A DNA stretch of 64,000 bases. It comes from Cytophagaceae bacterium (GTDB lineage: Bacteria; Bacteroidota; Bacteroidia; Cytophagales; JAIYAX01). Under the pieces are notes generated by a model that saw only the letters and a list, made by a program, of their open reading frames with translations, was not told where the DNA came from and made no database searches. The position numbers were made by a program, and so were the translations under genes. Below, one piece after another: positions 2,420 to 62,322 of the stretch (positions are counted from its first letter, which is position 1; each line of letters begins with the position of its first letter). The stretch covers positions 15,812 through 79,811 of the forward strand of contig JAIYAX010000026.1 in the NCBI GenBank assembly GCA_027488815.1, read 5' to 3'.

Positions 2420-4558
2420 ATGAGGCCTATGTCGCAATCTACCGAAACACCTGTGCTCGACAAAACAGAACAACAGATCTTCAAAAGCAAGTTCTTGTCA
2501 AGAGACCTGAGCTGGATACAGTTTAACCGCAGGGTGCTTGATCAGGTGAACAACGAGAACAGAAGCATCTTTGAAAAACTGATGTTTCTCACAATCACCT
2601 CTTCCAATATGGATGAGTTTTTTACCATCAGGCTAGGCAGTTTGTACAATTACATTGATTTCGACAAAGAGCGCATTGACTACTCCGGCCTTAGAGAAAT
2701 TCCATTCAAGAAGAAGCTTTTAGGAGACGTTCAACAGTTTTTTGCTGACCAGCAACAGGTATTTTGGGATAAACTGGAGCCTGAGTTTAAGGCACAGGGC
2801 TTCAGCATTGCAGTGATAGACCAACTGACGGAAAAGGAAAAACTGAGTGTTTCCAATTACTTCATGAAAACTGTTTTTCCCATGCTTACCCCGATGGTGT
2901 ATGACAGTTATCATTCCTTCCCGATGCTGATGAACAAGCTGCTCATATTTGGGGTTGTGACCCGAAGCAGTGAAGATATAAAGCAGCAGAAGAAGCTTTC
3001 CTTTGTCCAAATACCTCAGAATTTACCCCGTTTTTTTGAAGTGGAGCGTTCGGACACTCTGCTCTTTGTTCCCATCGAGCAAATCATCCGTTGGCAGATA
3101 GCCAAGTTGTTCAGGAACATTGAGATACTGTCGGTAAACCTGTTTCGCATCACCCGTAACGGAGACTTTACGCTGGAAGAGAGTGACGATCTGGAAGCGG
3201 ATTTTATTGAAGAATTGAGACGAAAGCTGAAGACCCGCAAAACGGGAAGGGTCGTGCGCATCGAGACTGACGCCAATCCCTCCAACTGGATGCTGAAAAT
3301 TCTCAAGCAGCGATGGGAGCTCAACGACGATAACATTTTCAGCTCTTCTGCCCCGCTCGATTTCACGGGCCTCAGCCAGATCATACGTCACCCGGCGTTC
3401 AAGTCGAAAATGAAGCCAAGACCCAGTCAGGTGCCACCTATTGGGCACAGTGAGCAGCTCAAGGATGATATTTTTGAGTTTCTGAAGCAGAAGGACATTC
3501 TGCTCCATCATCCTTACAATAGCGTTCAGCCGGTCATTGATCTGATCGAGCGCTCGGCAGAAGACTCGGGGGTATTGGCCATTAAAATCACCATTTACCG
3601 CTTGGCAAAGAGCTCCCGGGTGACCGCAGCCTTGTTAAAGGCGGCTGAAAATGGGAAGCACGTCTCGGTATTGTTTGAACTCAAAGCTCGTTTTGACGAA
3701 GAAAACAACATCAGAGAAGCCCAGAGACTGCAAAAGGCAGGTTGTTTTGTCATCTTCGGCTTTGGCTCGCTGAAGACCCACACCAAATTGATGCTCATAG
3801 TTCGGAAAGAAGAGGAGAAAGTTACCCGATATGTGCATTTGTCATCTGGTAACTACAATGAAGACACCTCTAAACTTTATACAGATGTAAGCTTGCTGAC
3901 GACCAATGAGGTCTATGCGCAGGATGTATCAGAGTTTTTCAATGTTATTACCGGGCATAGCAGCCCAAGTTTCTATCAGAACCTGATCACTGCGCCAAGG
4001 GATATGCGCAACAAAATGATTGATTTGATCAGACAAGAAGAAAGCAATGCGAAGAAAGGGCTGGCCTCGGGTATCGTGATCAAAATCAATTCACTGGAAG
4101 ACAGGCAGGTGATTGATGCATTGTACAAAGCAAGTCAGGCGGGAGTAAGGGTCCAATTGATCGTTAGGGGTATCTGTTGCCTTCGACCGGGACGCAAGGG
4201 GCTCAGTGAAAACATTAGCGTTAAATCCATAGTAGGCGATTTTCTGGAGCATGCCAGACTGTTCTATTTTCACAACAATGGCAACCCATTGGTTTATGGA
4301 GGCAGTGCTGATGTGATGGTAAGAAGCTTTGAACGAAGGGTGGAGTCTATGTTTATGCTGTTAGACCCTTCCACTAAGTTACAGGCCATCACCATCCTGC
4401 AGTTTAACCTGCGAGATAATTACAACTCGTATGTGTTGCTTGAAAGTGGCAATTACCTGAAGATGATCCCAGATGAAGGTGAAGAAACCTTCAACATTCA
4501 TCAGGAGTTTTTCAATTTAAACAAATCCAGACTGGTCGAGCAGCCGGTATTGGTTTAG
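2420..4558 (+). CDS. ppk1: Polyphosphate kinase 1
   Basis: 712-aa ORF with the PPK1 N-terminal motif (FLSRDLSWIQFNRRVL), the autophosphorylation His context (SLKTHTKLMLIVR) and a C-terminal PLD-like domain (GSADVMVRSFERRVE). Confidence 0.95.
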   Translation: MRPMSQSTETPVLDKTEQQIFKSKFLSRDLSWIQFNRRVLDQVNNENRSIFEKLMFLTITSSNMDEFFTIRLGSLYNYIDFDKERIDYSGLREIPFKKKLLGDVQQFFADQQQVFWDKLEPEFKAQGFSIAVIDQLTEKEKLSVSNYFMKTVFPMLTPMVYDSYHSFPMLMNKLLIFGVVTRSSEDIKQQKKLSFVQIPQNLPRFFEVERSDTLLFVPIEQIIRWQIAKLFRNIEILSVNLFRITRNGDFTLEESDDLEADFIEELRRKLKTRKTGRVVRIETDANPSNWMLKILKQRWELNDDNIFSSSAPLDFTGLSQIIRHPAFKSKMKPRPSQVPPIGHSEQLKDDIFEFLKQKDILLHHPYNSVQPVIDLIERSAEDSGVLAIKITIYRLAKSSRVTAALLKAAENGKHVSVLFELKARFDEENNIREAQRLQKAGCFVIFGFGSLKTHTKLMLIVRKEEEKVTRYVHLSSGNYNEDTSKLYTDVSLLTTNEVYAQDVSEFFNVITGHSSPSFYQNLITAPRDMRNKMIDLIRQEESNAKKGLASGIVIKINSLEDRQVIDALYKASQAGVRVQLIVRGICCLRPGRKGLSENISVKSIVGDFLEHARLFYFHNNGNPLVYGGSADVMVRSFERRVESMFMLLDPSTKLQAITILQFNLRDNYNSYVLLESGNYLKMIPDEGEETFNIHQEFFNLNKSRLVEQPVLV

Positions 4559-5409
4559 GGGACCAGTTTTATCTTCCTTGCTTGCAGGATTTCCCTGTTG
4601 CTGCTGGTGTTGATAGCAACCATCGGTATGAAATGCACATGCCGGTGGTTGATGAAAGCAGGTAAAGTGAAGTTGAACGTCTTTGCAATGGTCTGACCTA
4701 CAGATGCAGAGCTAACAGTTAAGGCCTCTCCCCAGGTCCCGTTAAGCGAACCCCTTAGCATATAGCTGTGATAATAGTTTTGAACCGTTCCCAATGGTGG
4801 CTTATGTAGCTGTGGACTGAGCACACTATCTTCAGTGTAATAAACCATAAGATTAAAGGGGCCACTGCCGGGATTACTTTCAACCTTTATTTTTACGGTT
4901 AGATTGAGTACTCTGGTGCTGGTATCGTAGTCCAGGGTATCTGTCATGGAAAACGGGCTTTCCAGGCTAACCAGTCGTTGTACTTCTGTTGGCCAATTAG
5001 GGTAGCTTACTTTCCAGAAATTATTGACTCGACGTCGGTTAACTGTGCCAGCGGGTAAGACTCCGTTGATGCCAAAAAACTGATCAATTTCATTCCCGAC
5101 TGACGTTTTAAAATTAGCAGGGAAATCAGGCGGGTTTGGATCCGCAAAAAAGCCTACATGAGGTGCAATCACGATCAGCCTTGAGCCGTAAAGTTTCTCC
5201 AGATTTTTTGCAGTCTTGGTAGCATCAGGACAGTTGGAACAGGTTTGGCCGGTATAATCCTCCAGCACAATTGCTCTTTTCCCAACGATAGTGACCGTAT
5301 CTTCTGGGTTTAAGTTATTCGATTGAATAGGGTTTGCGACTTCATCACAGCCTATGAGGCTCAATGCAAATGCAACTAAGAGGGTGAATTGAAGCTCGTA
5401 TCTCATCAT
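4555..5409 (-). CDS. Omp28-related thioredoxin-like outer-membrane lipoprotein with a CxxC motif
   Basis: The ORF-track ORF runs to 5481, but the plausible start is the ATG at 5409 (MMRYELQFTLLVAFALSLIGC, lipobox LIGC). That start overlaps the upstream gene's stop (TGATG). It carries the motif AIVLEDYTGQTCSNCP, shared with the two T9SS proteins at 7678 and 10029. Confidence 0.7.
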   Translation of the reverse strand: MMRYELQFTLLVAFALSLIGCDEVANPIQSNNLNPEDTVTIVGKRAIVLEDYTGQTCSNCPDATKTAKNLEKLYGSRLIVIAPHVGFFADPNPPDFPANFKTSVGNEIDQFFGINGVLPAGTVNRRRVNNFWKVSYPNWPTEVQRLVSLESPFSMTDTLDYDTSTRVLNLTVKIKVESNPGSGPFNLMVYYTEDSVLSPQLHKPPLGTVQNYYHSYMLRGSLNGTWGEALTVSSASVGQTIAKTFNFTLPAFINHRHVHFIPMVAINTSSNREILQARKIKLVP

Positions 5410-7094
5410 CAAAACGTTTTGGTGATTTGTATCGTTGCACCATTGGTGGCAGGTACTACACGGCAAATTCCGCCAACACAAAGCACTCCTTGCCGCTGCC
5501 GACCATAGGAAAACTGTATGCGCATGCCCTCTTTGGTGTAACCGAAAGAACCTAGCAAATAATGTACCCTTCGGCTTTCATTAGGGTTTCCATAATTGTA
5601 TTGGTCCAAAACAGCAAAAAACCAATGCGGTGAAACGGTGTATTCGACTAAACCCATGCCCCAGCTTCCCTGATCCTGAGCGGTCTCAAGCACTTGTCCT
5701 TCAAATCGAATGGCATGACTGCTATTGATTTTATAGGTGAAATCTGCTACAATGATATTGGCTTTCACAAGTGTGCCTCTGGCATCACCTAGAGTAAGTC
5801 TCGTATCGTTTTCGGTGTACATAAACATCAAATTCATTTTCAACTTACTGCTGAGCTTCTTTCTGAACTCAATGTTATAATCTCTGAAAATGGTCTGTTT
5901 TCCCGGTCTGAAAAGAGAATTGTTGTAAGATATCTTTTTCTGTTCCGCAGTAATTGAGTCTGTAGGTGTACGATATGGTGTATTTACCGCAGACATATTG
6001 ATGACAAAGTCAGCACCGTATCGACCTCCTAAAAATGTGTTTTTGGGGATGCGGTAACTAAGCTCATATTGTCCGCCAATTTCACCCAAGGGTTGCACAG
6101 CGTAGGGGTAGATACTTGCTGCCAGGTTGTACGTATGCTGCTTCACCAAGGCAGGTAGGAAGTTGATAAAGAGGATATTGGGATCTTGAGCTCCCCTGTC
6201 GGAGCGAAACTCCATATTATCAGCACTCTTAAAGCCTAGGCTGATGCCCAAGCCGGAAACAGAATAGCTGCCCTGGAGCAAAAGAACCCGCCCACGGTTG
6301 TAAATGAATTTGTTGGTGCCTGAGGGGTCATTGTTTTTTACAGCGTATTCCCCGCTAAACTGTGCCGCACCTTTTTGAACAGTAAGCCTTCCTGCTCCCG
6401 TAGCGACATTCAATGGGAAATTAAAGGTAGGATCCTGATCTTCCTGGTATCGGCTGACGAAACTTCCTCCGGTGGTGATCATCCATCCTGCCTCAGCAAG
6501 AGGCTCATACAGCTCATGTACAGCTACTTCTCCGTCCCCACCTCTCACAATTCCGGGCCCAAGTGACCAGTAAAACCGCTGTTTGCCAAATAAGCCTTTG
6601 AGATATATTCCTTTCATTGGAGCATATCGTACCCTAAATCCTTCCAGAGAATTGTCTAGGCCTAGATTTCGATCTTCAAAAACCCGCAGGGTAAGACCAT
6701 TACCAAATTGCTCATAAAAATTCCCCAGCGTAATTTCCATGTTGTCATCCATATAACTAGCGAATTTATAGGGGATACCACTTCTACCTCCGCCGTCGTT
6801 AAAACCCTGATCAATCCCTAGCAAGGCTTTTTCATAGCTTTCAAAACGTACCCCTCCTGTGAATTTGCCTCGAGTGTAAATCAGATTTCCAACACCCATA
6901 AACCTCATACGTTCATCCACTTTTACAGCCCCTATGGTAGAGTCCTGACGGTAATACTGGGCATCAATGGTGAAATTTCCACGAATTTCACCTCCCAAAA
7001 GGTTGGAGTCATTGGATTGGGCAAATGCTCTGGTGCAGAGAAAATAAAAAAATAACAGGCCGGAAAGCCTGATGAAAAAAATAGGCATGTTCAA
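5409..7094 (-). CDS. Outer-membrane beta-barrel protein (DUF6029-like), unknown function
   Basis: 561 aa with a signal peptide ending AFAQ, alternating [14 protein letters not shown] sequence throughout and a C-terminal aromatic residue (..IQITKTF). A Cys pair (CVGGIC) sits about 20 aa from the C-terminus. The family name is recalled from memory, not searched. Confidence 0.6.
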   Translation of the reverse strand: MNMPIFFIRLSGLLFFYFLCTRAFAQSNDSNLLGGEIRGNFTIDAQYYRQDSTIGAVKVDERMRFMGVGNLIYTRGKFTGGVRFESYEKALLGIDQGFNDGGGRSGIPYKFASYMDDNMEITLGNFYEQFGNGLTLRVFEDRNLGLDNSLEGFRVRYAPMKGIYLKGLFGKQRFYWSLGPGIVRGGDGEVAVHELYEPLAEAGWMITTGGSFVSRYQEDQDPTFNFPLNVATGAGRLTVQKGAAQFSGEYAVKNNDPSGTNKFIYNRGRVLLLQGSYSVSGLGISLGFKSADNMEFRSDRGAQDPNILFINFLPALVKQHTYNLAASIYPYAVQPLGEIGGQYELSYRIPKNTFLGGRYGADFVINMSAVNTPYRTPTDSITAEQKKISYNNSLFRPGKQTIFRDYNIEFRKKLSSKLKMNLMFMYTENDTRLTLGDARGTLVKANIIVADFTYKINSSHAIRFEGQVLETAQDQGSWGMGLVEYTVSPHWFFAVLDQYNYGNPNESRRVHYLLGSFGYTKEGMRIQFSYGRQRQGVLCVGGICRVVPATNGATIQITKTF

Positions 7095-7096
7095 AT

Positions 7097-7627
7097 TTAC
7101 TCCTTGGGCTGTTCAGTCAGTTTTTTGATTTTTTCATATAGTTTCATTTCATCGCCCTCGGTATAAGAGTTATGCTGATGAACCATATTTCCTTTGCCAT
7201 CGAAAAGAAAAGTGTGCGGGATGTTATTTACGTTCATGGCCCTTTTCAAGTCCTGATTTTGATCGATATACACTTCATAACTCCAGCCTTTCCCATTCAC
7301 AAGCGGGGCAACTTTGGCAATATTACGACTATCATCAATGGACACGGCGATGATTTTAACGCCTGTTTCTTTCACCCAATCCTCATAAACATCTGAGATG
7401 TTGATCAACTCATTGATGCAGGGTTTACACCAGGTCGCCCAAAAATTAAGCACATAAGGCTTACCATCGTTTCCAAAGCTGGCGCTATTTACATTGGCCC
7501 CTTTAAGGTCTTTGACAATAGCAGCAGGAAGTCTTTTAATATCGGGCTCAGCTTGCGCTAAAACAATGGAATTAGCCGTGCCAAGGATAATGATCAACAG
7601 AATTAGAGCGAGAGCAGATTTCTTCAT
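7097..7627 (-). CDS. TlpA-family periplasmic thiol:disulfide oxidoreductase
   Basis: 176 aa with signal peptide MKKSALALILLIIILGTANSIVLAQA and a thioredoxin-fold active site (FWATWCKPC). It ends 2 nt before the next gene. Confidence 0.9.
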   Translation of the reverse strand: MKKSALALILLIIILGTANSIVLAQAEPDIKRLPAAIVKDLKGANVNSASFGNDGKPYVLNFWATWCKPCINELINISDVYEDWVKETGVKIIAVSIDDSRNIAKVAPLVNGKGWSYEVYIDQNQDLKRAMNVNNIPHTFLFDGKGNMVHQHNSYTEGDEMKLYEKIKKLTEQPKE

Positions 7628-7633
7628 AGGGCA

Positions 7634-7668
7634 TAAAAAACCCGGGAAGGGTTGTGCACTTCCCGGGT
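7634..7668 (-). terminator. Intrinsic terminator (minus strand) after the 7678-9375 gene
   Basis: Stem ACCCGGGAAG / CTTCCCGGGT with a 9-nt loop. Read on the minus strand it is followed by TTTTTT. Confidence 0.6.
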
Positions 7669-7677
7669 GAGGTTGAT

Positions 7678-9375
7678 TTATTTACTTAATTCGATTTTTC
7701 TAACTACTTGCTTTCCATCTTGACTGAGGCGTATCAGATACATGCCTCCAGCCAATTGGCTCAGGTCAAGCTCTCTTACGAATAACTCGCCATTTACTTG
7801 TCCGTCCTGAACATTCATCACTTCCTGACCCATCAGATTGTAGACCTGAAGAGCGATTTGAGCAGTACCATTTAAGGGTAATTCAATTCGAACTAAGCCG
7901 CTTGAAGGGTTTGGATAAACCGCTAGTTTGCCACCGCCAAGCTCATTTTCCAGTCCTGAAACACCATTTATTTGGAAAAATTTACGATCAGCGGACGTGA
8001 AACTTCCACCTGTGTAAACATTAACTCCGTTATGCCTCAAACGATAATATCCTGCCCCAAATCCGCAGCAAATGCCATCGCCATAAGAATCCAGAATAGT
8101 GAAATTGATACACTGACCTTGTGGCAATGTCCATGTTTGCGTGGGTTGAACCTGAATGGTATTAGAGGCCAAATTAGTATAAGGACCACCACTATAAAGC
8201 ACCGTTGCAGTATTGTCAGTAAGGCTCCAGGTGGTTTCTGAACCATAACGATCAGTAGCTAATTCAAACGTAAAGGTGCTGCTGGACAAAGTCAATTGGT
8301 CAATCACAGGAGCTGTGTAGTTGTAGGTGATGGCCATCGTATCGTTAGCCTGATTAAGATCAACGACATTGTTGACATTTGATAAATAGGCCAGGTAATT
8401 GTTTGCTCCATTTACCATAGATAGGGTGGGCAATACAATATTAGCTGATGCACCTGGAGCAAGAAAGCCAGCCCAGGGCTGTGAAGCCACAGTTGCACCG
8501 TTTACAGCATAATTGATAGTAGCTGATGTCAAATTGGTGCTTCCATTGTTACGAATTCTCAGTCTCTGTGTAAAGTTGCCTGAACAGCTGCTTGATGGCT
8601 GATCAACGATACGTGTTAAACTTGCTTCTGTGCCTGTGATAGTTGCCAGGCCGGTATATCCTCCTTGGATGATTTCCTTGGTAGCATTATTCTGAATAAA
8701 GCCAACTACTTCAATGTTTGCCCTATTGTACACATTCGTCATGTTCCAGCTGGCACTTACAGACATGGAGTCGTTTACTGCCATTGTACCCGGTACTGTG
8801 GTACCTAACTGAGTTGGAAGCATTTGCTTCATCACATTATGGAAGCCTAATTCACCATTGCTGCCTGGAGGCGTTTGAAAGATGATCTCTTTTTCAACAA
8901 CAAGCAATTGCAGGACAGCATTTACTGAGCTGGCACCCACTTTCTTGATTTTAGCATTGACTTCAATGCTGTTGCCGTTAATGGTTTTGGTAACCGTCAG
9001 TTCATATGGACTGGTAACAGCGTGTCTGTTGTTGATATTGGTTTGGTTAATGGATCCTGGAGAACCGGATACTACATTACCATCCATTCTGACACTAGGA
9101 ACTCCGCTAACGTTGTAATAGGTCACTCTGTTAGCTACCTGAGTAGGGTTGTGGGCATTCATCGGATCGACACCAGGCCAAGAAGTCTGGTATTTGATGG
9201 GAACGACTTTGGTCGTATTTTGATCTAACAAGGCCTTTAAGGCAGGATTTTGAACAGCACATGGGCCACAGGAAGCCTGAGTAAAGTGCTCGACAACAAT
9301 TAAGCGTGGGGCTTGAGCGTAGGAAAACGACAATACTCCAGCCATTGCACAGAGGGTAAGTAGAATTTTCTTCAT
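7678..9375 (-). CDS. T9SS-sorted secreted protein with an N-terminal Omp28-like CxxC thioredoxin-like domain
   Basis: 565 aa with a signal peptide. It has the motif LIVVEHFTQASCGPC, a CARDB-like middle segment and a Cys-rich module (TDRYGSETTW...DSYGDGICCGFGAGYY). The C-terminal sorting-domain-like tail reads LAVYPNPSSGLVRIEL...GMYLIRL...RKIELSK. Confidence 0.75.
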   Translation of the reverse strand: MKKILLTLCAMAGVLSFSYAQAPRLIVVEHFTQASCGPCAVQNPALKALLDQNTTKVVPIKYQTSWPGVDPMNAHNPTQVANRVTYYNVSGVPSVRMDGNVVSGSPGSINQTNINNRHAVTSPYELTVTKTINGNSIEVNAKIKKVGASSVNAVLQLLVVEKEIIFQTPPGSNGELGFHNVMKQMLPTQLGTTVPGTMAVNDSMSVSASWNMTNVYNRANIEVVGFIQNNATKEIIQGGYTGLATITGTEASLTRIVDQPSSSCSGNFTQRLRIRNNGSTNLTSATINYAVNGATVASQPWAGFLAPGASANIVLPTLSMVNGANNYLAYLSNVNNVVDLNQANDTMAITYNYTAPVIDQLTLSSSTFTFELATDRYGSETTWSLTDNTATVLYSGGPYTNLASNTIQVQPTQTWTLPQGQCINFTILDSYGDGICCGFGAGYYRLRHNGVNVYTGGSFTSADRKFFQINGVSGLENELGGGKLAVYPNPSSGLVRIELPLNGTAQIALQVYNLMGQEVMNVQDGQVNGELFVRELDLSQLAGGMYLIRLSQDGKQVVRKIELSK

Positions 9376-9478
9376 TCGGATTTGTTGTTTTGTTTAAATG
9401 GAAACAAACACAAACGTACACATTATTCAGCTTTCAAAAAAAAATCTCATCTTTGTGGCCTACCTATTGTAACATCAC

Positions 9479-9964
9479 ATGAATTCTGCCCTTTTTGCCA
9501 AATTTAATTCCGTTGCTCTTTTAGTGCTTTCAGCCATTTTCTTTACTGCTTGCGGTGGAGATGACCCCAAAATAGAAGATGTTACGCCGACTTCTTCCAA
9601 ATCCATTAAATTGGAAAATATACAAGACAGCATCGCAGCTCCTGCGTCAAGATCACTGATAGAAGCCAGATTGAATGTTCGCAACACCTCTACGGTAAGC
9701 AAGTCAATCAAAGTAAAGCGATATGAAATATCCGTGATTGAAGGTACTGACAACAGCATTTGCTGGGGGGCTTTTTGCTATCCTCCAAACATAACCGAAA
9801 CGCCCGATTACCAGACCATTTCTCCAAATGGTATTGATACCACCTTTAAGGCTGATTATATTCCTAAAGGAATTACCGGAGTTTCAAAATACATGTATGT
9901 GTTTTTTGACAAAGACAGTCCAAAAGACTCTTCTTATGTGGTGATTACCTTTAATGGTCAATAG
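9479..9964 (+). CDS. Small lipoprotein, unknown function
   Basis: 161 aa with lipobox FFTAC followed by GGDD, beta-rich sequence and a single Cys pair (ICWGAFC). It is divergent from the 7678 gene and convergent with the 10029 gene. Confidence 0.55.
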   Translation: MNSALFAKFNSVALLVLSAIFFTACGGDDPKIEDVTPTSSKSIKLENIQDSIAAPASRSLIEARLNVRNTSTVSKSIKVKRYEISVIEGTDNSICWGAFCYPPNITETPDYQTISPNGIDTTFKADYIPKGITGVSKYMYVFFDKDSPKDSSYVVITFNGQ

Positions 9965-12410: not shown

Positions 12411-13472
12411 ATGAATGAAATTGTTTTTTTCTCCTGTTTTATCCTTTTCATCCTTACCATTCTTATTCTTGACTTAGGGGTATTCAGTAAAGGGAATCAT
12501 GAAGTTACTTTCAAACAGGCCACCATTTGGAGTGTTATTTGGATCGGCCTCTCCATAGCTTTTTTCTTTTTCCTTAGATCGCATGGAGACCTTGTTCACG
12601 GAGTAGACAATTTTGATGAGCTACATCACATCGAGCAGAAATATGCTGAGCATGTAGACATTGACCCAGCAAATTTTGAGCAGAGCAAGGCCAATTACAA
12701 CAAAAACATGGCTCTCGAATTTATTACCGGCTATGTGATCGAGTATGCCCTTTCTGCTGACAATATTTTTGTTATCATTTTGATATTCACCTCTTTTAGT
12801 GTGCCCAAGCGCTATTACAAAAGAGTTCTTTTTTGGGGAATTTTAGGCGCTTTGGTCATGCGCTTCATCTTTATTTTCGCAGGTAGTGCCCTAATCCATC
12901 GTTTTGAATGGATATTGTATGTCTTCGGTACCTTTTTACTTTATACAGGCTTAAAATTGTTTTTTAAGAAAGATGATGATGAGAATATCGATACTCAAAA
13001 CCATCCGGTAGTTCGTTTTACATCAAAGTACTTCCCCGTATATCCACGTTTTGTTCTGGAACGTTTCTTTGTGCGCAGGGAGGGCCGATTGATGATTACA
13101 CCTCTTTTTGTGGTTTTATTGATCATCGAATTCACTGATTTGATTTTTGCTGTTGACTCAGTTCCTGCAGTGTTTTCAGTTACCAAAGACCCATACGTTG
13201 TGTTTTTCTCCAACATCTTCGCCATTTTAGGCTTACGAAGCATGTTTTTCTTTTTGGCTGCTGTAATGGATAAGCTCAAGTACTTGAAGCTTGGCCTGGC
13301 CTTTTTACTTTCCTTTATCGGCCTTAAAATGTTGTTTATTCATTGGCTTAAGATGCTAGGATTCAAACCTCATCATTCTCTATTTGTTATTCTGATAATC
13401 CTGGGTACCAGTATCATTGCCTCGCTCATCAGCAACTACCGGATCGAGCAAAAGAGAAAAAGTTTGACTTAG
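12411..13472 (+). CDS. TerC/Alx-family integral membrane protein
   Basis: 353 aa and multi-pass hydrophobic, with TerC-type motifs (EYALSADNIFVI, FAVDSVPAVFSVT). Confidence 0.88.
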   Translation: MNEIVFFSCFILFILTILILDLGVFSKGNHEVTFKQATIWSVIWIGLSIAFFFFLRSHGDLVHGVDNFDELHHIEQKYAEHVDIDPANFEQSKANYNKNMALEFITGYVIEYALSADNIFVIILIFTSFSVPKRYYKRVLFWGILGALVMRFIFIFAGSALIHRFEWILYVFGTFLLYTGLKLFFKKDDDENIDTQNHPVVRFTSKYFPVYPRFVLERFFVRREGRLMITPLFVVLLIIEFTDLIFAVDSVPAVFSVTKDPYVVFFSNIFAILGLRSMFFFLAAVMDKLKYLKLGLAFLLSFIGLKMLFIHWLKMLGFKPHHSLFVILIILGTSIIASLISNYRIEQKRKSLT

Positions 13473-14392
13473 CGATCTGCAGTAAAGTTTTTAACTTCTC
13501 CGGCATGTTTTTCAAACAGCATGCGGATCATGCCATCCTTAAGACCCAAAACCGGCACCTCGATCTGTTCGATTCCGGCCCATTTCATTACGGATAAGTA
13601 AATATCAGCCGCCGGCACAATCACATCAGCACGGTCAGGGTTAAGCATAAACTCATTCACCCTTTGCTCGATGGTCATCTTCTTTAACTTGTTGACCACT
13701 GCTTGTATTTTTTTGATATCCAGAGCTTTATTACCACGATGTCCGGCAAGCTCAGCTATTTTATTGATGTTTCCGCCGGTTCCTACAGCCATTCGTTGCT
13801 TACTGAAATCGGAGGTATTTTTCTGGATCCATTTTTCCATCTCTTTCCATACCTCAGGGCTGTCCTGTCCATCTAGCCTGCGAACGGAGCCTAAAGTAAA
13901 AGAGATAGATTTTTGTTTCACCCCGTTCAAAAACGTGGTAATTTCAGTACTGCCTCCCCCTACGTCGATGTGTAAATAAGAGCCAACTCCCATATGCTCT
14001 TGCACCACCCGATTGATGATTTCAGCTTCTTTCAATCCATCAATCAGCTTGATCTTAATGCCGGTATGCTCTTCAACCAGTTTGATTACCTCCTGCCCGT
14101 TGCTAGCCTCCCGTAGGGCTGAAGTAGCGTACACGAGATAATGGTCAATTTCATACAAGTCAATCAACAAGGAAAAAGCTTTGAATAGCTTAACCATCTT
14201 TTCCATCTTCCATGTACTGATGGTGCCTTTGATAAAGACCTCCTCCCCAAGACGGATAGGAAATCGAATGTACTCTACCTTTTTAAAGGTATAAGATTGC
14301 TGGTATCTGTGAACACTCGTGATTTGAAAGCGAATGGCATTGGAGCCTATATCAATAGCGGCTAGTTTCAAGGGGTGGTTTAGTAGCTCCAA
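13469..14392 (-). CDS. ppx: Ppx/GppA-family exopolyphosphatase / phosphatase
   Basis: 307 aa with ASKHA-fold motifs (AAIDIGSNAIRFQI, HIDVGGGSTEIT, AVGTGGN). Confidence 0.88.
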   Translation of the reverse strand: MELLNHPLKLAAIDIGSNAIRFQITSVHRYQQSYTFKKVEYIRFPIRLGEEVFIKGTISTWKMEKMVKLFKAFSLLIDLYEIDHYLVYATSALREASNGQEVIKLVEEHTGIKIKLIDGLKEAEIINRVVQEHMGVGSYLHIDVGGGSTEITTFLNGVKQKSISFTLGSVRRLDGQDSPEVWKEMEKWIQKNTSDFSKQRMAVGTGGNINKIAELAGHRGNKALDIKKIQAVVNKLKKMTIEQRVNEFMLNPDRADVIVPAADIYLSVMKWAGIEQIEVPVLGLKDGMIRMLFEKHAGEVKNFTADR

Positions 14393-14480: not shown

Positions 14481-14591
14481 CTCTTATCAGGAAAGACTGA
14501 GGGATTGGGCCCGTCGACGTCTTAGCAACCCTGGCTGCAGGGTGCTAACTCCCACTCCGATAGTTTCCGCTATCAGGAGACAGATAAGGTG
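14481..14591 (+). promoter_or_regulatory. SAM-I (S-box) riboswitch
   Basis: The sequence CTCTTATCAGGAAAGACTGAGGGATTGGGCCC...TAGCAACCCTGGC...GGTGCTAACTCC...GGAGACAGATAAGG matches the SAM-I conserved core (P1 CTTATC/GATAAG, GAGGGA, GGCCC, GCAACC, GGTGCTAA.TCC). It lies directly upstream of the methionine synthase genes. Confidence 0.9.
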
Positions 14592-23903: not shown

Positions 23904-25205
23904 TTATTGGATTATTACGGGATGAAAACCATTCAAGTTTACCGATAAAAGGTACATGCCTGGAGGTAGATCTGAAACATATATTCGACCTTCTGAGTCG
24001 GTTTGATTGCTTCTGACCTGCCTGCCCTGAAGGTTTAAAATCCGGTAAGGTGCATCCGGCTTGTTTGTCCAAATGACATCTTTAGCAGGCTGTGGGTATA
24101 GCTTGATTTTTTGGTTTTGGGCACTTAGGCTTTCCACGCTTGTCGATGTTACCGTGCAGGGCAAACTCATAATTCTTGCCCATACCTCGTTGTCAAAATC
24201 GGAGAGTGCCAAAGGACTTAGCCCACTTGCATCTCCCAATCGGATGACCACTATCTTTTCAGAAGGCCAGATATAAATCCTTTGATCGTTCTTGCCCAAA
24301 GCTGATATTACGTCATCAGGGGCGGAAGGAATCAAATCTCCAGGAAACAAAAACTGAGATTGGGGAAGGCGATAGCTCCCTTTACCATTCAGCCACCATA
24401 AAAAACCATAAGAGAGGTTGATGGACTGTGAAGTATTCACAGAACGAAACAAATAGGTGGTGTCTTTTAAAACAGTATCCTGATTCCAAATGCCTTTGTT
24501 CATGATAAGCAACCCAAACCTGGCCATGCTGCGGGCACTTGAGTAGTACACATTGTTATCTCCAGTCTGTAGCCATAGACCTGTCATTCCAATTTTTTGC
24601 CTGATACGGGTTTGGGTGTAGGAATTAATGTTAACGGCGGTAGCATTTTCTATTACATCCTTCAGCAAGGTGTAGGGTGCGTTATGATAAGCCCAGCGAG
24701 TACCTGTATCAGCCAAGTAGAGAAGGCAGGAGGGCAGTGTGCAGTCAGGATTTGTCACCAGATCACTTAAGCCGGTGGTCATGCTGAGTTGATGCCTGAT
24801 CTTGATCTTCCTTTCCTGCTGAGTTGTAAGGCTGGTCCAGCCAGTTCCAAGAAACCTCGAACTGCTGTCCTCAATACTTAAATGTCCTTCCGTCTGAGCA
24901 ATGCCTACAAGTGCTGCTGTTAGAGTCTTGCCGGCTGAGGCCCAATACCAAACACTGTCTCGGGTAAAACTGCCATAATAGGTTTCCAGAACGATGCGTC
25001 CATTTTTTAAGATGATAAATGCTTTGGTGTTTTTGGACGCCAGGTAGTTTTCCAGAGTATCTATACGGTCCGGGCACCAGTTGAGACTTGAGGGGCTCAG
25101 GGTATCCCAGGCCGGCCCAATCAAAGGTGGGAAGTAGGTTCCTTGAGAAAACGACTTTTGACTTAGTCCATAAATCAACAAAAAAGTCAGGCTGAGATAT
25201 TTCAT
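23904..25205 (-). CDS. Beta-lactamase-family serine hydrolase with a T9SS C-terminal sorting domain
   Basis: 433 aa with a signal peptide and an SxxK motif (ASAGKT). The C-terminal tail reads KLYPQPAKDVIW...GMYLLSVNL. Confidence 0.78.
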   Translation of the reverse strand: MKYLSLTFLLIYGLSQKSFSQGTYFPPLIGPAWDTLSPSSLNWCPDRIDTLENYLASKNTKAFIILKNGRIVLETYYGSFTRDSVWYWASAGKTLTAALVGIAQTEGHLSIEDSSSRFLGTGWTSLTTQQERKIKIRHQLSMTTGLSDLVTNPDCTLPSCLLYLADTGTRWAYHNAPYTLLKDVIENATAVNINSYTQTRIRQKIGMTGLWLQTGDNNVYYSSARSMARFGLLIMNKGIWNQDTVLKDTTYLFRSVNTSQSINLSYGFLWWLNGKGSYRLPQSQFLFPGDLIPSAPDDVISALGKNDQRIYIWPSEKIVVIRLGDASGLSPLALSDFDNEVWARIMSLPCTVTSTSVESLSAQNQKIKLYPQPAKDVIWTNKPDAPYRILNLQGRQVRSNQTDSEGRIYVSDLPPGMYLLSVNLNGFHPVIIQ

Positions 25206-27448: not shown

Positions 27449-27522
<74 letters not shown>

Positions 27523-27553
27523 AATAAGATGGCCTACAATAAATCTACCGGCC

Positions 27554-27586
27554 AAAAAAAGCCCGCTGAACTTGGTAGGACAGCGG
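27554..27586 (-). terminator. Possible weak intrinsic terminator between tRNA-Pro and tRNA-Arg
   Basis: Read on the minus strand, a 6-bp stem (CCGCTG / CAGCGG) with a 12-nt loop is followed by GCTTTTTTT. Confidence 0.35.
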
Positions 27587-27620
27587 ACTTCAATTGAGAT
27601 TCTCGGCTCACCGAGAGGAG

Positions 27621-27695
27621 TCGGGGTGGCAAGATTCGAACTTGCGACCTCCTGGTCCCAAACCAGGCGCGATGACCGGGCTACGCTACACCCCG
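27621..27695 (-). tRNA. tRNA-Pro (anticodon TGG)
   Basis: Manual cloverleaf: CGGGGTG TA GCGT AGCCCGGTCA TCGC G CCTGG TTTGGGA CCAGG AGGTC GCAAG TTCGAAT CTTGC CACCCCG A. No CCA is encoded. Confidence 0.9.
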
Positions 27696-27775
27696 ATTTT
27701 CATTTAGCCGGGAAGACTCTACTTGCTTAGAGGTATCGTCATCCCATCACAGAGAGCTTAGGTCACTTAGCCCTC

Positions 27776-27864
<89 letters not shown>

Positions 27865-60630: not shown

Positions 60631-62322
60631 ATGAAATACGGATTGATCCTGTTCCTCTTTTTTAGCTTCAGTCTTGCACAGGCTCAGTCGATCCGATGCC
60701 ATACTTCACTGCTTGCCTTTGATACCCTGTTGGAGACGCAAACGGATAGTCTCTCTTTTTTTCTAAGCAATGTTTCTCAACAAGGGATTACAGTCAACCA
60801 GTTTTACCTAATGCCCATTTATGGTGCTCCGGCATTTTTTTTAAAAGACTCTGTGTTTTTCGTTCCTGCGCTGGACAGTGTGAGGGTTTGGGTGTATTTC
60901 AAACCCAGACACAACATCTACCACAACAGCGAACTCATCATGACATTTTGCCCTACAGGTCAGTGTCTGGCAGGAACGCACCGGATCAATCTGACCGGCC
61001 AGGGGAGGTACAGCATAACCTATTATCAGACAACAGAAAACCTGATTGAACAAAGCCTCAGGACAGCCTTAAAAACGAAGATAAGTAGCCCATTCACTTC
61101 TCTGGGGTACAATAGTGCAAGGGATCAGATGTTTATGTTGATTGATAACAAGGCCACCAACGGGCAAGGAGCAACGGTCAATACCTTAGAGTGCATTTAC
61201 ACCGGGCGGGTCATCACTGGCTACACCAGCCGAACCCAGGCGCAAAATTCTCCCATGAACTTCAATACAGAACACACTTTCCCGCAAGGGTTTTTTAGCG
61301 AGAACGAGCCCATGCGTTCAGATCTTTTTCATTTGTTCCCCACGGATGCACCGGCAAACAACAGCAGGGCAAACTTTGCATTTGGCATTGCAAGCACGCC
61401 TTTTCAAAGTGTCGCCATCAACAATCCTCTCAATCTGGCTGATGCCTCAAAATTAGGTGCGAACAACTTGTATGAGCCACGCAACCTTCAAAAAGGAAGG
61501 ACCGCAAGAGGGATGATGTATTTTGTGCTGCGCTATCAGGATTACAGCAATTTCATGTCAGGTCAGGAAAGCATACTACGCACCTGGCATAGCCTTTACC
61601 CTCCATTGACAGAAGAACGAACCCGCAATCAGGCCATTGCTCTTCAACAACAAAATCGAAATCCCTTCATTGACTATCCTCAGTTTGCAGAACGTATCAG
61701 CAGCCTGACCGCAGCGACTACAAACGCTCCGGTAGTTTGGGGCATCAGGCCTGCCCTGAACAGCATTCATTTGGGTCCGGTCGGTGTAGATAGCCTCTAC
61801 CGCTATGTTTTTCATTTGACCAATACCGGAAACCAAACCATTCAGATTTCAAACCCCACCATCTCAGGAGCTGGTCTTGCGATCACTTCGGGATCATCCG
61901 GATTTACCATAGCAATAGGGGAGTCTACACCAGTTTCCTTGAGTTTTACCCAATCCGGTAACCTGAGCCCTTCAGGAACGTTGTCCTTTCAAACCAATGT
62001 GCCAGGCTTTGGAAGTGTAAACATCCCAATAACGGGCGCAAACCAGCTTTCACTGGAGCAAACGGAGTTTCGTTTTGTCGCACCTGAGCTTTTCCCATTA
62101 CCTGCTGACGAAGAGGTTTACATCGGTTTTAAAGAAAAGCTATATCAGCCTCTGTATCTCCGGTTGATCAATGAACGAGGGCAGGTTGTTTTAGACCAAA
62201 TAGAAGCTCCCAATGAGGAGTCTTTTATCATTGAAACCCGCCATTTGCCTGAGGGGCTCTATTTCCTTGGTTTAGCTTACGGAAGCTTTCACCAATTCTA
62301 CAAAGTGCCTGTAAGGCATTAA
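60631..62322 (+). CDS. Extracellular endonuclease I-family nuclease with a T9SS C-terminal sorting domain
   Basis: 563 aa with a signal peptide (..LAQAQ) and an endonuclease I core (NTEHTFPQGFF, DLFHLFPTD..NNSRAN, NRNPFIDYP). Ig-like segments flank the core, and the C-terminal tail reads LFPLPADEEVYI...GLYFLGL. Confidence 0.82.
   Translation: MKYGLILFLFFSFSLAQAQSIRCHTSLLAFDTLLETQTDSLSFFLSNVSQQGITVNQFYLMPIYGAPAFFLKDSVFFVPALDSVRVWVYFKPRHNIYHNSELIMTFCPTGQCLAGTHRINLTGQGRYSITYYQTTENLIEQSLRTALKTKISSPFTSLGYNSARDQMFMLIDNKATNGQGATVNTLECIYTGRVITGYTSRTQAQNSPMNFNTEHTFPQGFFSENEPMRSDLFHLFPTDAPANNSRANFAFGIASTPFQSVAINNPLNLADASKLGANNLYEPRNLQKGRTARGMMYFVLRYQDYSNFMSGQESILRTWHSLYPPLTEERTRNQAIALQQQNRNPFIDYPQFAERISSLTAATTNAPVVWGIRPALNSIHLGPVGVDSLYRYVFHLTNTGNQTIQISNPTISGAGLAITSGSSGFTIAIGESTPVSLSFTQSGNLSPSGTLSFQTNVPGFGSVNIPITGANQLSLEQTEFRFVAPELFPLPADEEVYIGFKEKLYQPLYLRLINERGQVVLDQIEAPNEESFIIETRHLPEGLYFLGLAYGSFHQFYKVPVRH

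Follow-up and report, generated by a model that had tools for sequence, protein, structure and literature searches.

The surfaces of Bacteroidota carry many thioredoxin-fold proteins. Among them is HBP35 of Porphyromonas gingivalis, a surface protein anchored by a type IX secretion system (T9SS), whose recombinant form reduces insulin faster than Escherichia coli thioredoxin; this insulin-reductase activity is lost in the C48S/C51S variant, and hemin binding maps to the C-terminal half of the protein (PMC2907840). Another, protein 00502 of Paraprevotella clara, is an Omp28-related T9SS protein that recruits trypsin to the cell surface and triggers its autodegradation; its cysteines were not considered by the authors of that work (PMC9477747). 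Two further T9SS proteins of this kind are encoded in the stretch analyzed here, a window of 64,000 nucleotides from a Cytophagaceae bacterium (contig JAIYAX010000026.1), upstream of three packed genes for a TlpA-like reductase, an outer-membrane (OM) barrel of the DUF6029 family and an Omp28-family lipoprotein. Tentatively, and with slightly less than even confidence, we regard this trio as central to an envelope module, conserved in Bacteroidota, by which CxxC proteins of thioredoxin fold come to the OM and the cell surface; its probable task there is to build or maintain a protein complex with redox activity. The three genes are as follows:

7627-7097, minus strand: TlpA-like reductase, 176 aa, read from the open reading frame (ORF)
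7094 (TTG start, 561 aa) or 7088 (ATG start, 559 aa) to 5409, minus strand: DUF6029 barrel
5409-4555, minus strand: Omp28-family lipoprotein, 284 aa, read from the ORF

The lipoprotein resembles HBP35 in having a thioredoxin-like domain with a CxxC motif followed by a beta-sandwich, but it differs in its anchor, a lipid in contrast with the T9SS C-terminal domain of HBP35, and in its motif, which is CSNC (family consensus CGNC) vs. CGYC. Closer architectural analogues of HBP35 are the two upstream T9SS proteins (565 and 685 aa), which also share with 00502 a surface Omp28-related domain delivered by T9SS. With Omp28 of P. gingivalis (PG2173; PDB 2r2c) the lipoprotein has in common a size of about 28 kDa, the lipid anchor and the Pfam family PF11551, although it scores under the cut-off of the NCBIfam model lipoprot_Omp28 (NF033782; 133.3 bits vs. 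150). Both outer-membrane vesicles (OMVs) and supernatant of P. gingivalis have been found to contain Omp28; in one study, OMVs had it only if they came from H2O2-treated cells. The TlpA-like protein shares with TlpA, ResA, CcmG (DsbE) and StoA an exported thioredoxin fold, a WCxPC motif, a cis-Pro loop and a gene located beside those of presumed substrates. These reductases are membrane-anchored, whereas the protein of the window is soluble by prediction and lacks a cytochrome c or Cu-centre context, and its presumed substrates would be, unlike theirs, an OM barrel and a lipoprotein.

Two systems with large barrels also invite comparison. MtrCAB (PDB 6r2q) likewise groups the genes of a very large barrel and two redox proteins, one periplasmic and the other a lipoprotein, but it works with heme wires, whereas the trio would have to use thiol-disulfide exchange, which needs direct contact; MtrB ranked 11th among the Foldseek matches to the barrel and was a generic one (TM-score 0.34). 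The LptD-LptE pair also combines a large barrel with a lipoprotein, and LptD was found among the Foldseek matches to the barrel. LptD has essential cysteines near the C-terminus of its barrel, which are handled by periplasmic oxidoreductases. The window barrel differs from LptD in the absence of an N-terminal jellyroll and in having a local C-x4-C staple instead of long-range disulfides, and LptE, unlike the window lipoprotein, is not of thioredoxin fold. In the literature searched, DUF6029 appeared only once, as a possible Wzi-like barrel (PMC9603273), and no paper described the trio or linked Omp28 with TlpA or with the barrel. The components are known folds. Their combination, in which a TlpA-type reductase is joined by an OM barrel-lipoprotein pair and T9SS surface thioredoxins, appears to be undescribed; it would be categorically new only if electrons were shown to cross the OM.

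The ATG start of the barrel (7088) coincides with the start of an identical database protein (P0001, 559 aa); the distance from the tlpA-like gene is 8 nt with this start and 2 nt with the TTG. Barrel stop and lipoprotein start share the letters TGATG (5411-5407). An earlier note, made from the letters of this DNA, had described a tight packing of the three minus-strand genes, with the TGATG overlap and a 2-nt gap; the packing and the overlap were borne out and the gap holds for the TTG start. Its statement that every product is exported and carries a single Cys pair was likewise upheld by the signal peptides, the lipobox and a direct count of cysteines, each mature protein containing one pair and no further cysteine besides the lipidated one. 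The trio presents successive conserved Cys pairs on separate, co-encoded and exported proteins, as a relay-type system would.

The TlpA-like protein has the active site WCKPC (7429-7418, its cysteines encoded by 7429-7427 and 7420-7418), a cis-Pro loop that reads NIPHTF and a cleavable signal peptide ending in VLAQA, before EP. Pfam scores were above the cut-offs for AhpC-TSA (70.2 bits), Redoxin (60.2 bits) and Thioredoxin_8 (51.4 bits), and all NCBIfam scores remained under theirs (85.6 vs. 170 bits for ResA, 49 vs. 230 for TlpA, 50.2 vs. 123 for DsbE and 67 vs. 210 for StoA). Judged by these scores, the protein is TlpA-like and not an orthologue of TlpA, ResA or CcmG; ResA structures matched it by sequence with E values of 1e-17 to 1e-11. 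A signal peptide of the signal peptidase I type was present in 71/71 orthologues, seven of which additionally fit a loose N-terminal lipobox pattern, and conservation among them was strong (around 40 alignment columns at 90% or more). The protein is thus predicted to be a soluble, periplasmic thiol:disulfide oxidoreductase.

A nuclear magnetic resonance structure entered as an "uncharacterized thioredoxin-like protein" (PDB 2m72) was 52% identical to the window TlpA-like protein and 55-58% identical to Bacteroidales orthologues, with the motif NCKPC in place of WCKPC. The protein of 2m72 is probably PG_2175 of P. gingivalis. PG2173 is the Omp28 of this species and PG_2174 an uncharacterised OMV protein, which would make PG2175-PG2174-PG2173 a probable candidate for the same trio.

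The second product matched DUF6029 (PF19494) over its full length (556.8 bits vs. a cut-off of 27, E 7e-167; residues 15-561 on model positions 7-538 of 538), which confirmed the family proposed for it beforehand. Its signal peptide ends in AFA, before Q, and its sequence ends in TKTF. The terminal Phe and the motif CVGGIC some 20 residues before it, both pointed out earlier, could be read directly: the motif occupies the residues 18-23 from the C-terminus and its Cys codons lie at 5480-5478 and 5465-5463. The AlphaFold2 model (pLDDT 87.9) is a closed barrel of around 24 strands, so that signal peptide, C-terminal aromatic residue and predicted fold are all those of an OM barrel. Foldseek gave a probability of 1.0 to OM barrels, with the FimD usher as the best match (TM-score 0.49) followed by MtrB, AlgE and LptD, which, as matches to a predicted model, are those of generic large barrels. 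No solved structure related to the barrel by sequence was found. A match to a characterised porin family, named beforehand as a result that would speak against a redox role, did not appear either by sequence or by Foldseek, where the matches were generic only.

Location of the Cys pair in the AlphaFold2 model was different from that supposed at first. The pair sits on a short hairpin (534-538/541-545) with a GG turn, which two-residue kinks connect with the last two barrel strands. Because the C-terminal Phe that closes the final strand is periplasmic, the hairpin has to stand out from the extracellular rim or bend from there into the lumen; in the model, this extracellular-side origin is independent of the exact strand count. 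As read from the DSSP string, C539 and C544 would occupy the position adjoining the turn-flanking pair, the usual site of cross-strand disulfides. The claim that the barrel pair forms the middle compartment of a relay is weakened by this model: with the pair on the extracellular rim, the periplasmic TlpA-like protein cannot reach it in the assembled barrel except via the lumen.

This region was highly conserved. More than 3,700 homologues of the barrel were present in the database, and aligning 120 of these (46-84% identity) showed both cysteines (C537 and C542 in the 559-aa numbering), the two intervening glycines, R543 and P546 to be invariant. When conservation was mapped on the predicted topology, extracellular loops reached 0.73 vs. 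0.66 for strands and 0.66 for periplasmic turns; the Cys hairpin L12 was the most conserved segment of the barrel (0.90), followed by L3 (0.86) and the 45-residue L7 (0.80). If the predicted topology is right, loops are more conserved than strands, the opposite of ordinary porins. This pattern indicated that the outer or luminal face has a function and that a conserved partner covers it.

The lipoprotein carries the lipobox LIGC (Cys codon 5349-5347) and the motif EDYTGQTCSNCP, with Cys codons 5241-5239 and 5232-5230 forming the pair CSNC. It passed the Pfam cut-off for Omp28 (PF11551, 62.4 bits vs. 34.9), in agreement with the assignment made from the sequence. Its AlphaFold2 model (pLDDT 91) consists of a disordered tether of around 24 aa, a thioredoxin-like domain, where helix 1 begins with the CxxC and P119 is the cis-Pro, and a C-terminal beta-sandwich. 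The best Foldseek match was HBP35 (5y1a, E 7e-12, TM-score 0.64 over 261 columns), followed by the DUF1223 protein Atu2684 (2axo) and the Omp28 domain 2r2c (E 6e-6). The suggestion that CSNC lies in a thioredoxin-like context was therefore substantiated by the model, the cis-Pro and the match to HBP35. When the family profile was compared with PDB chains, 2r2c was reached with E 2e-27 and 5y1a weakly (E 1e-3). Since the model matches HBP35, which is active in vitro, the Omp28-like family is not functionless; the statement that it has no established function is contradicted by the Cys-dependent activity of HBP35 and by the trypsin capture of 00502, and otherwise stands.

Twelve residues (E50, D51, G54, C57, C60, P61, H84, P119, G121, R125, W139 and Q200) were invariant in 47 homologues of around 30% identity to the lipoprotein. 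A profile search of 1.84 billion representatives yielded 13,145 relatives, and the CxxC was kept in 146 of the 147 best-scoring readable ones. The mature N-terminus of the family is C-D-K-[IV]-[DE]-x-P-[YF]. This resembles the lipoprotein export signal (LES) of Bacteroidetes, C-X-K-(D/E)2 (PMC5080379), yet varies less than would a generic signal. The lipoprotein has no T9SS C-terminal sorting domain, in contrast with HBP35; judged from the LES-like family N-terminus and the T9SS-exported paralogues, its thioredoxin domain is likely to be surface-exposed. The representative search also contained tandem double-Omp28 proteins of around 510-550 aa with two modules (P0190-P0195, P0197, P0200); of the two tandem proteins inspected, P0190 had two CxxC sites and P0129 one.

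A species-level scan (one genome per species) yielded at least 591 confirmed loci. The Cys motif was one of the two scan patterns, and this locus set is biased for the Cys pair, whereas the protein search is not. Synteny was counted in the best 80 of these loci plus one further locus (81, or 82 with the window), whose ORFs were searched with the window proteins. The TlpA-like gene was located directly upstream of the barrel gene on the same strand in 71/81 loci, and the Omp28 lipoprotein gene directly downstream on the same strand in 70/81, with gaps mostly from -1 to 25 nt; strict adjacency of the partners thus amounted to about 88% of the loci, which answers the question of neighbourhood conservation raised by the earlier note. 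The genomes were of Cytophagia, Flavobacteriia, Bacteroidia, Chitinophagia and Sphingobacteriia type. Since several classes are represented and the outer flanks are unrelated, the linkage has been selected and is not due to recency. Chance adjacency was considered and rejected, gene order and strand being held while the outer flanks differ. When the contigs of three distant Omp28 lipoproteins (around 30% identity) were inspected, two of the genes were again in a trio and one was solo.

The Cys pairs were essentially invariant. The barrel motif C[VIA]GG[VI]C was present in 82/82 loci, WCxPC in 70/71 TlpA-like proteins (any CxxC in 71/71) and a CxxC, mostly CxNC, in 76/76 Omp28 lipoproteins. Together with the 120 aligned barrels and the 146 of 147 lipoprotein relatives, these counts show that all three pairs are conserved in orthologues, the feature on which the thiol-redox proposal had been made to depend. 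A six-frame scan of all loci for selenocysteine variants of four Cys-pair motifs, with TGA read as U, gave off-frame noise only.

Recurrent neighbours of the trio were T9SS thioredoxin proteins, a small OM barrel, UbiX, QueG, sirtuin, mannose-6-phosphate isomerase, RuvA and malic enzyme. A polysaccharide-export context was rejected for the examined loci, as no such genes were among these neighbours. The small OM beta-barrel (a prediction, around 207 aa) occupied position +2, after Omp28, on the same strand in 22 loci, often with UbiX after it. The window lacks this barrel and has a convergent polyphosphate-kinase-like gene in its place.

The T9SS neighbours showed that the module is larger than first noted, since it reaches upstream beyond 7627 to genes of thioredoxin fold. 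These genes and a small ORF between them are:

9375-7678, minus strand: T9SS surface protein, 565 aa, with an N-terminal HBP35/Omp28-like thioredoxin-fold domain and a type-A sorting domain
9479-9964, plus strand: small, divergently transcribed, exported lipoprotein-like ORF, 161 aa, with lipobox FFTAC and the Cys pair SICWGAFCY
12086-10029, minus strand: second T9SS surface protein, 685 aa, with a weak internal Omp28-like thioredoxin-fold region and a C-terminal sorting domain

The 565-aa protein, with the CGPC motif VEHFTQASCGPCA (ASCGPCA), was above the Pfam cut-offs for Omp28 (49 bits) and Por_Secre_tail (47 bits) and under that for CARDB (17.5 vs. 22.7). Selenoproteins gave a redox hint only through its weak match to the NCBIfam model of Omp28-related selenoproteins (Omp28_seleno-like, 50 bits vs. 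a cut-off of 200). Its sorting domain weakly matched the PDB chain 8glk, "Endonuclease I". The 685-aa protein, with the motif ESFTSSTCGPCA (STCGPCA), passed for Por_Secre_tail (45 bits), Omp28 (29 vs. 34.9) and Thioredoxin (16 vs. 23.5) being sub-threshold. Across the loci, a long T9SS protein with a thioredoxin-type CxxC was encoded 2-4 genes upstream of the barrel in around 40 of 82 loci, mostly at position -2, directly before tlpA, and mostly on the same strand. Three subtypes occurred there, HBP35/Omp28-like (FTxxxC[GP]PCA), lipoprotein-motif-like (EEFTGxxCxYCPDG) and classical (WCGPCW), and the presence of three subtypes argues for selection of a thioredoxin-type site at the surface. The 161-aa ORF had no Pfam match. 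Its counterparts, of around 240 aa, have a T9SS C-terminal domain and the motif FCWxxCY and are encoded on the opposite strand, mostly at position -3; small-protein homologues kept a C-x3-4-C pair in around 36 loci. FCWxxCY is reminiscent of the barrel hairpin FCVGGVCR.

Between the stop of the 565-aa gene (7680-7678) and the tlpA start lies a terminator-like hairpin, in an intergenic stretch of 58 nt with a folding energy of -18 kcal/mol:

7669-7635, minus strand: terminator-like hairpin, 10-bp GC-rich stem ACCCGGGAAG/CTTCCCGGGT, 8-nt loop, T6

A similar hairpin with a T-run occupied the same place in most related loci, and Rfam gave no match in these upstream hairpins. No Bacteroidetes -7 box (TAnnTTTG) was found within the 280 nt before tlpA (7621-7900, minus strand), whereas one, TACGTTTG, lies around 40 nt before the 565-aa T9SS gene (9376-9480, minus strand). 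The terminator may therefore attenuate a longer transcript and not insulate the trio, which, going by these signals, may be expressed by read-through of 7669-7635. The earlier view of an operon insulated by a terminator was thus right about the hairpin with its T6 and doubtful about the insulation, the -7 box preceding only the upstream gene. A sigma-54-like -24/-12 motif (TGG-N8-TTG[CT]) was present before tlpA in 16/71 loci vs. 1.9 expected (L035, L057, L015, L076, L050, L078, L064, L075 and L056 among them), and in several Flavobacteriales-type loci it lay inside the hairpin loop, for example ATCAGTAGTG-TGGCACTATATTTGC-CTTTCCACTACTGAT-T-run; in the window it was not found upstream of tlpA.

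The reading that we prefer, although we would put it somewhat below an even chance, is that of a surface complex of barrel and lipoprotein, with the TlpA-like protein as the periplasmic reductase dedicated to servicing their Cys pairs. Barrel and lipoprotein would form a 1:1 OM complex, with the thioredoxin domain of the lipoprotein seated on the conserved outer face of the barrel, beside the cross-strand disulfide C539-C544. The TlpA-like protein, recharged by a CcdA or DsbD encoded elsewhere, would act as reductase for its operon partners, and probably for the neighbouring T9SS cargo too, keeping or resetting their Cys pairs as thiols during transit and assembly, on the model of ResA and CcmG with apocytochrome c, TlpA with ScoI and CoxB, and StoA with spore proteins. 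At the surface, the thioredoxin-fold sites would then engage extracellular partners, either exchanging thiols and disulfides with them or binding them in a Cys-dependent way; among these would be the hairpin of the barrel and the small protein with FCWxxCY. Such a system needs no continuous electron delivery across the membrane. The general idea of a thiol-redox operon, as first put forward, is retained in part on account of the conserved pairs, the synteny and the lack of a match to a characterised porin, and had to be qualified for the modelled site of the barrel pair, for the supposed lack of function of Omp28 and for the extent of the module.

Several observations weigh against this surface complex with its own reductase. 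The physical association of the trio is itself inferred. The mature N-terminus of the window lipoprotein, CDEVANP, has no export-signal Lys. As with the loop disulfides of FhuA and FepA, a solely structural role is conceivable for that of the barrel. Bacteroidota have very many TlpA-like genes, so that a general housekeeping role is possible, and no CcdA or DsbD was found among the 40 annotated ORFs (150 aa or more) of the 64-kb window. The trio was also incomplete at some loci: the barrel was alone in L022 and L040, barrel and Omp28 occurred without TlpA in L018 and L020, Omp28 was absent in L045, and in L060 it was replaced by a 481-aa exported protein (6835-8280) with a C-terminal TlpA-type domain, WDHGCGHC. 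Finally, on beads, Paraprevotella 00502 acts with neither reductant nor the products of its neighbours 00503-00508 present (PMC9477747).

A continuous thiol-disulfide relay across the OM, running from DsbD/CcdA through TlpA and the barrel to the surface lipoprotein and the T9SS thioredoxins, either by way of the barrel Cys pair or by entry of TlpA or the lipoprotein into the 24-strand lumen, would yield an extracellular disulfide-reductase activity; we consider it unlikely. In its favour, one packed and conserved operon holds the same cast as MtrCAB (soluble periplasmic redox protein, very large barrel, redox lipoprotein), every Cys pair is invariant, conservation of the barrel's outward face is unusually high, and the surface CGPC/WCGPC thioredoxins next door in around 40 loci would need a reductant for turnover. 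The barrel pair is moreover placed cross-strand, flanking a GG turn, and strained cross-strand geometry is often tied to redox-labile disulfides. However, the pair lies on the extracellular rim, open to TlpA only via the lumen or before assembly, and as thiols and disulfides exchange only on contact, the relay would call for entry of one of the two, TlpA or the lipoprotein, into the lumen; a thiol relay through an OM protein has no known precedent. In addition, 00502 acts without reductant, and selenocysteine variants of the three pairs were not found in these loci. The relay is further weakened because a dedicated maturation reductase explains the same data.

We find a ligand-relay or uptake system quite improbable. 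In it, invariant His84, Tyr212 and acidic residues of the lipoprotein would join the Cys pairs in holding heme or a thiophilic metal, which, once captured at the surface, would go through the barrel to the periplasm, in the manner of the Cys-pair hand-over of MerP-MerT, the TlpA-ScoI copper route or surface-lipoprotein/barrel pairs such as BtuG-BtuB. Pairs of a barrel and a surface lipoprotein are the standard uptake architecture of Bacteroidota, and rhizobial TlpA reduces ScoI, a thioredoxin-fold copper chaperone; the invariant His and the conserved beta-sandwich residues of the lipoprotein would also suit a ligand. HBP35 itself binds hemin via its C-terminal half, and hbp35 mutants grow poorly under hemin limitation (PMC2907840). 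Nevertheless, no TonB box, plug domain or ABC/permease partner was found in the conserved neighbourhood, carriers of the trio include free-living lineages that are presumably prototrophic for heme (Hymenobacter, Adhaeribacter, Flavobacteriales), and three thioredoxin subtypes nearby fit catalysis better than one specific ligand site. Very improbable, finally, is the absence of any joint redox function, with the barrel as a channel or Wzi-like polysaccharide barrel, its Cys pair as a structural loop staple and the neighbours there for unrelated or only loosely related reasons. Structural disulfides do occur in extracellular loops of large barrels, and there are the two solo barrels mentioned above. 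Furthermore, Wzi-barrel-only proteins near OPX genes were found by HHpred to resemble DUF6029 (PMC9603273). Against this, strict adjacency in around 88% of loci and tight spacing persisted across classes with varying flanks, no polysaccharide-export genes were among the recurrent neighbours, Wzi was not among the top 50 Foldseek matches in the PDB, and a reductase would be an odd partner for a purely structural disulfide.

The cluster is widespread, with hits in at least 591 species-level genomes and thousands of proteins in the database. It ties surface thioredoxin domains to a presumably dedicated periplasmic reductase and a giant barrel, and DUF6029 gains a concrete context and specific candidate residues. 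A relay, if true, would draw reducing equivalents from cytoplasmic Trx by way of DsbD/CcdA and so energise a disulfide reductase outside the cell, the thiol counterpart of MtrCAB; it could, for example, open up trypsin and other proteins rich in disulfides to degradation, or mend surface proteins that have been oxidised. The more conservative surface complex, if true, would add an OM barrel and a lipoprotein as new clients of TlpA-type reductases and a new barrel-lipoprotein complex, with relevance to gut, oral and environmental biology via the phylum.

Other features of the window were:

402-2360: gyrB-like ORF, by eye
2420-4558, plus strand: polyphosphate-kinase-like ORF, by eye
12411-13472: TerC-family membrane protein
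13469-14392, minus strand: Ppx/GppA phosphatase, by Pfam
14481-14590, plus strand: S-adenosylmethionine (SAM) riboswitch, Rfam RF00162, 62 bits
14589-19382: methionine operon after the SAM riboswitch (homocysteine S-methyltransferase domain, B12-dependent methionine synthase, methylenetetrahydrofolate reductase)
23904-25205, minus strand: T9SS cargo, beta-lactamase-family protein with Por_Secre_tail
27449-27864, minus strand: cluster of three tRNA genes
60631-62322, plus strand: Endonuclease I family protein

The Rfam matches of the window were all unrelated to the trio. The redox locus is bracketed by the polyphosphate-kinase-like ORF on one side and the Ppx/GppA phosphatase on the other.

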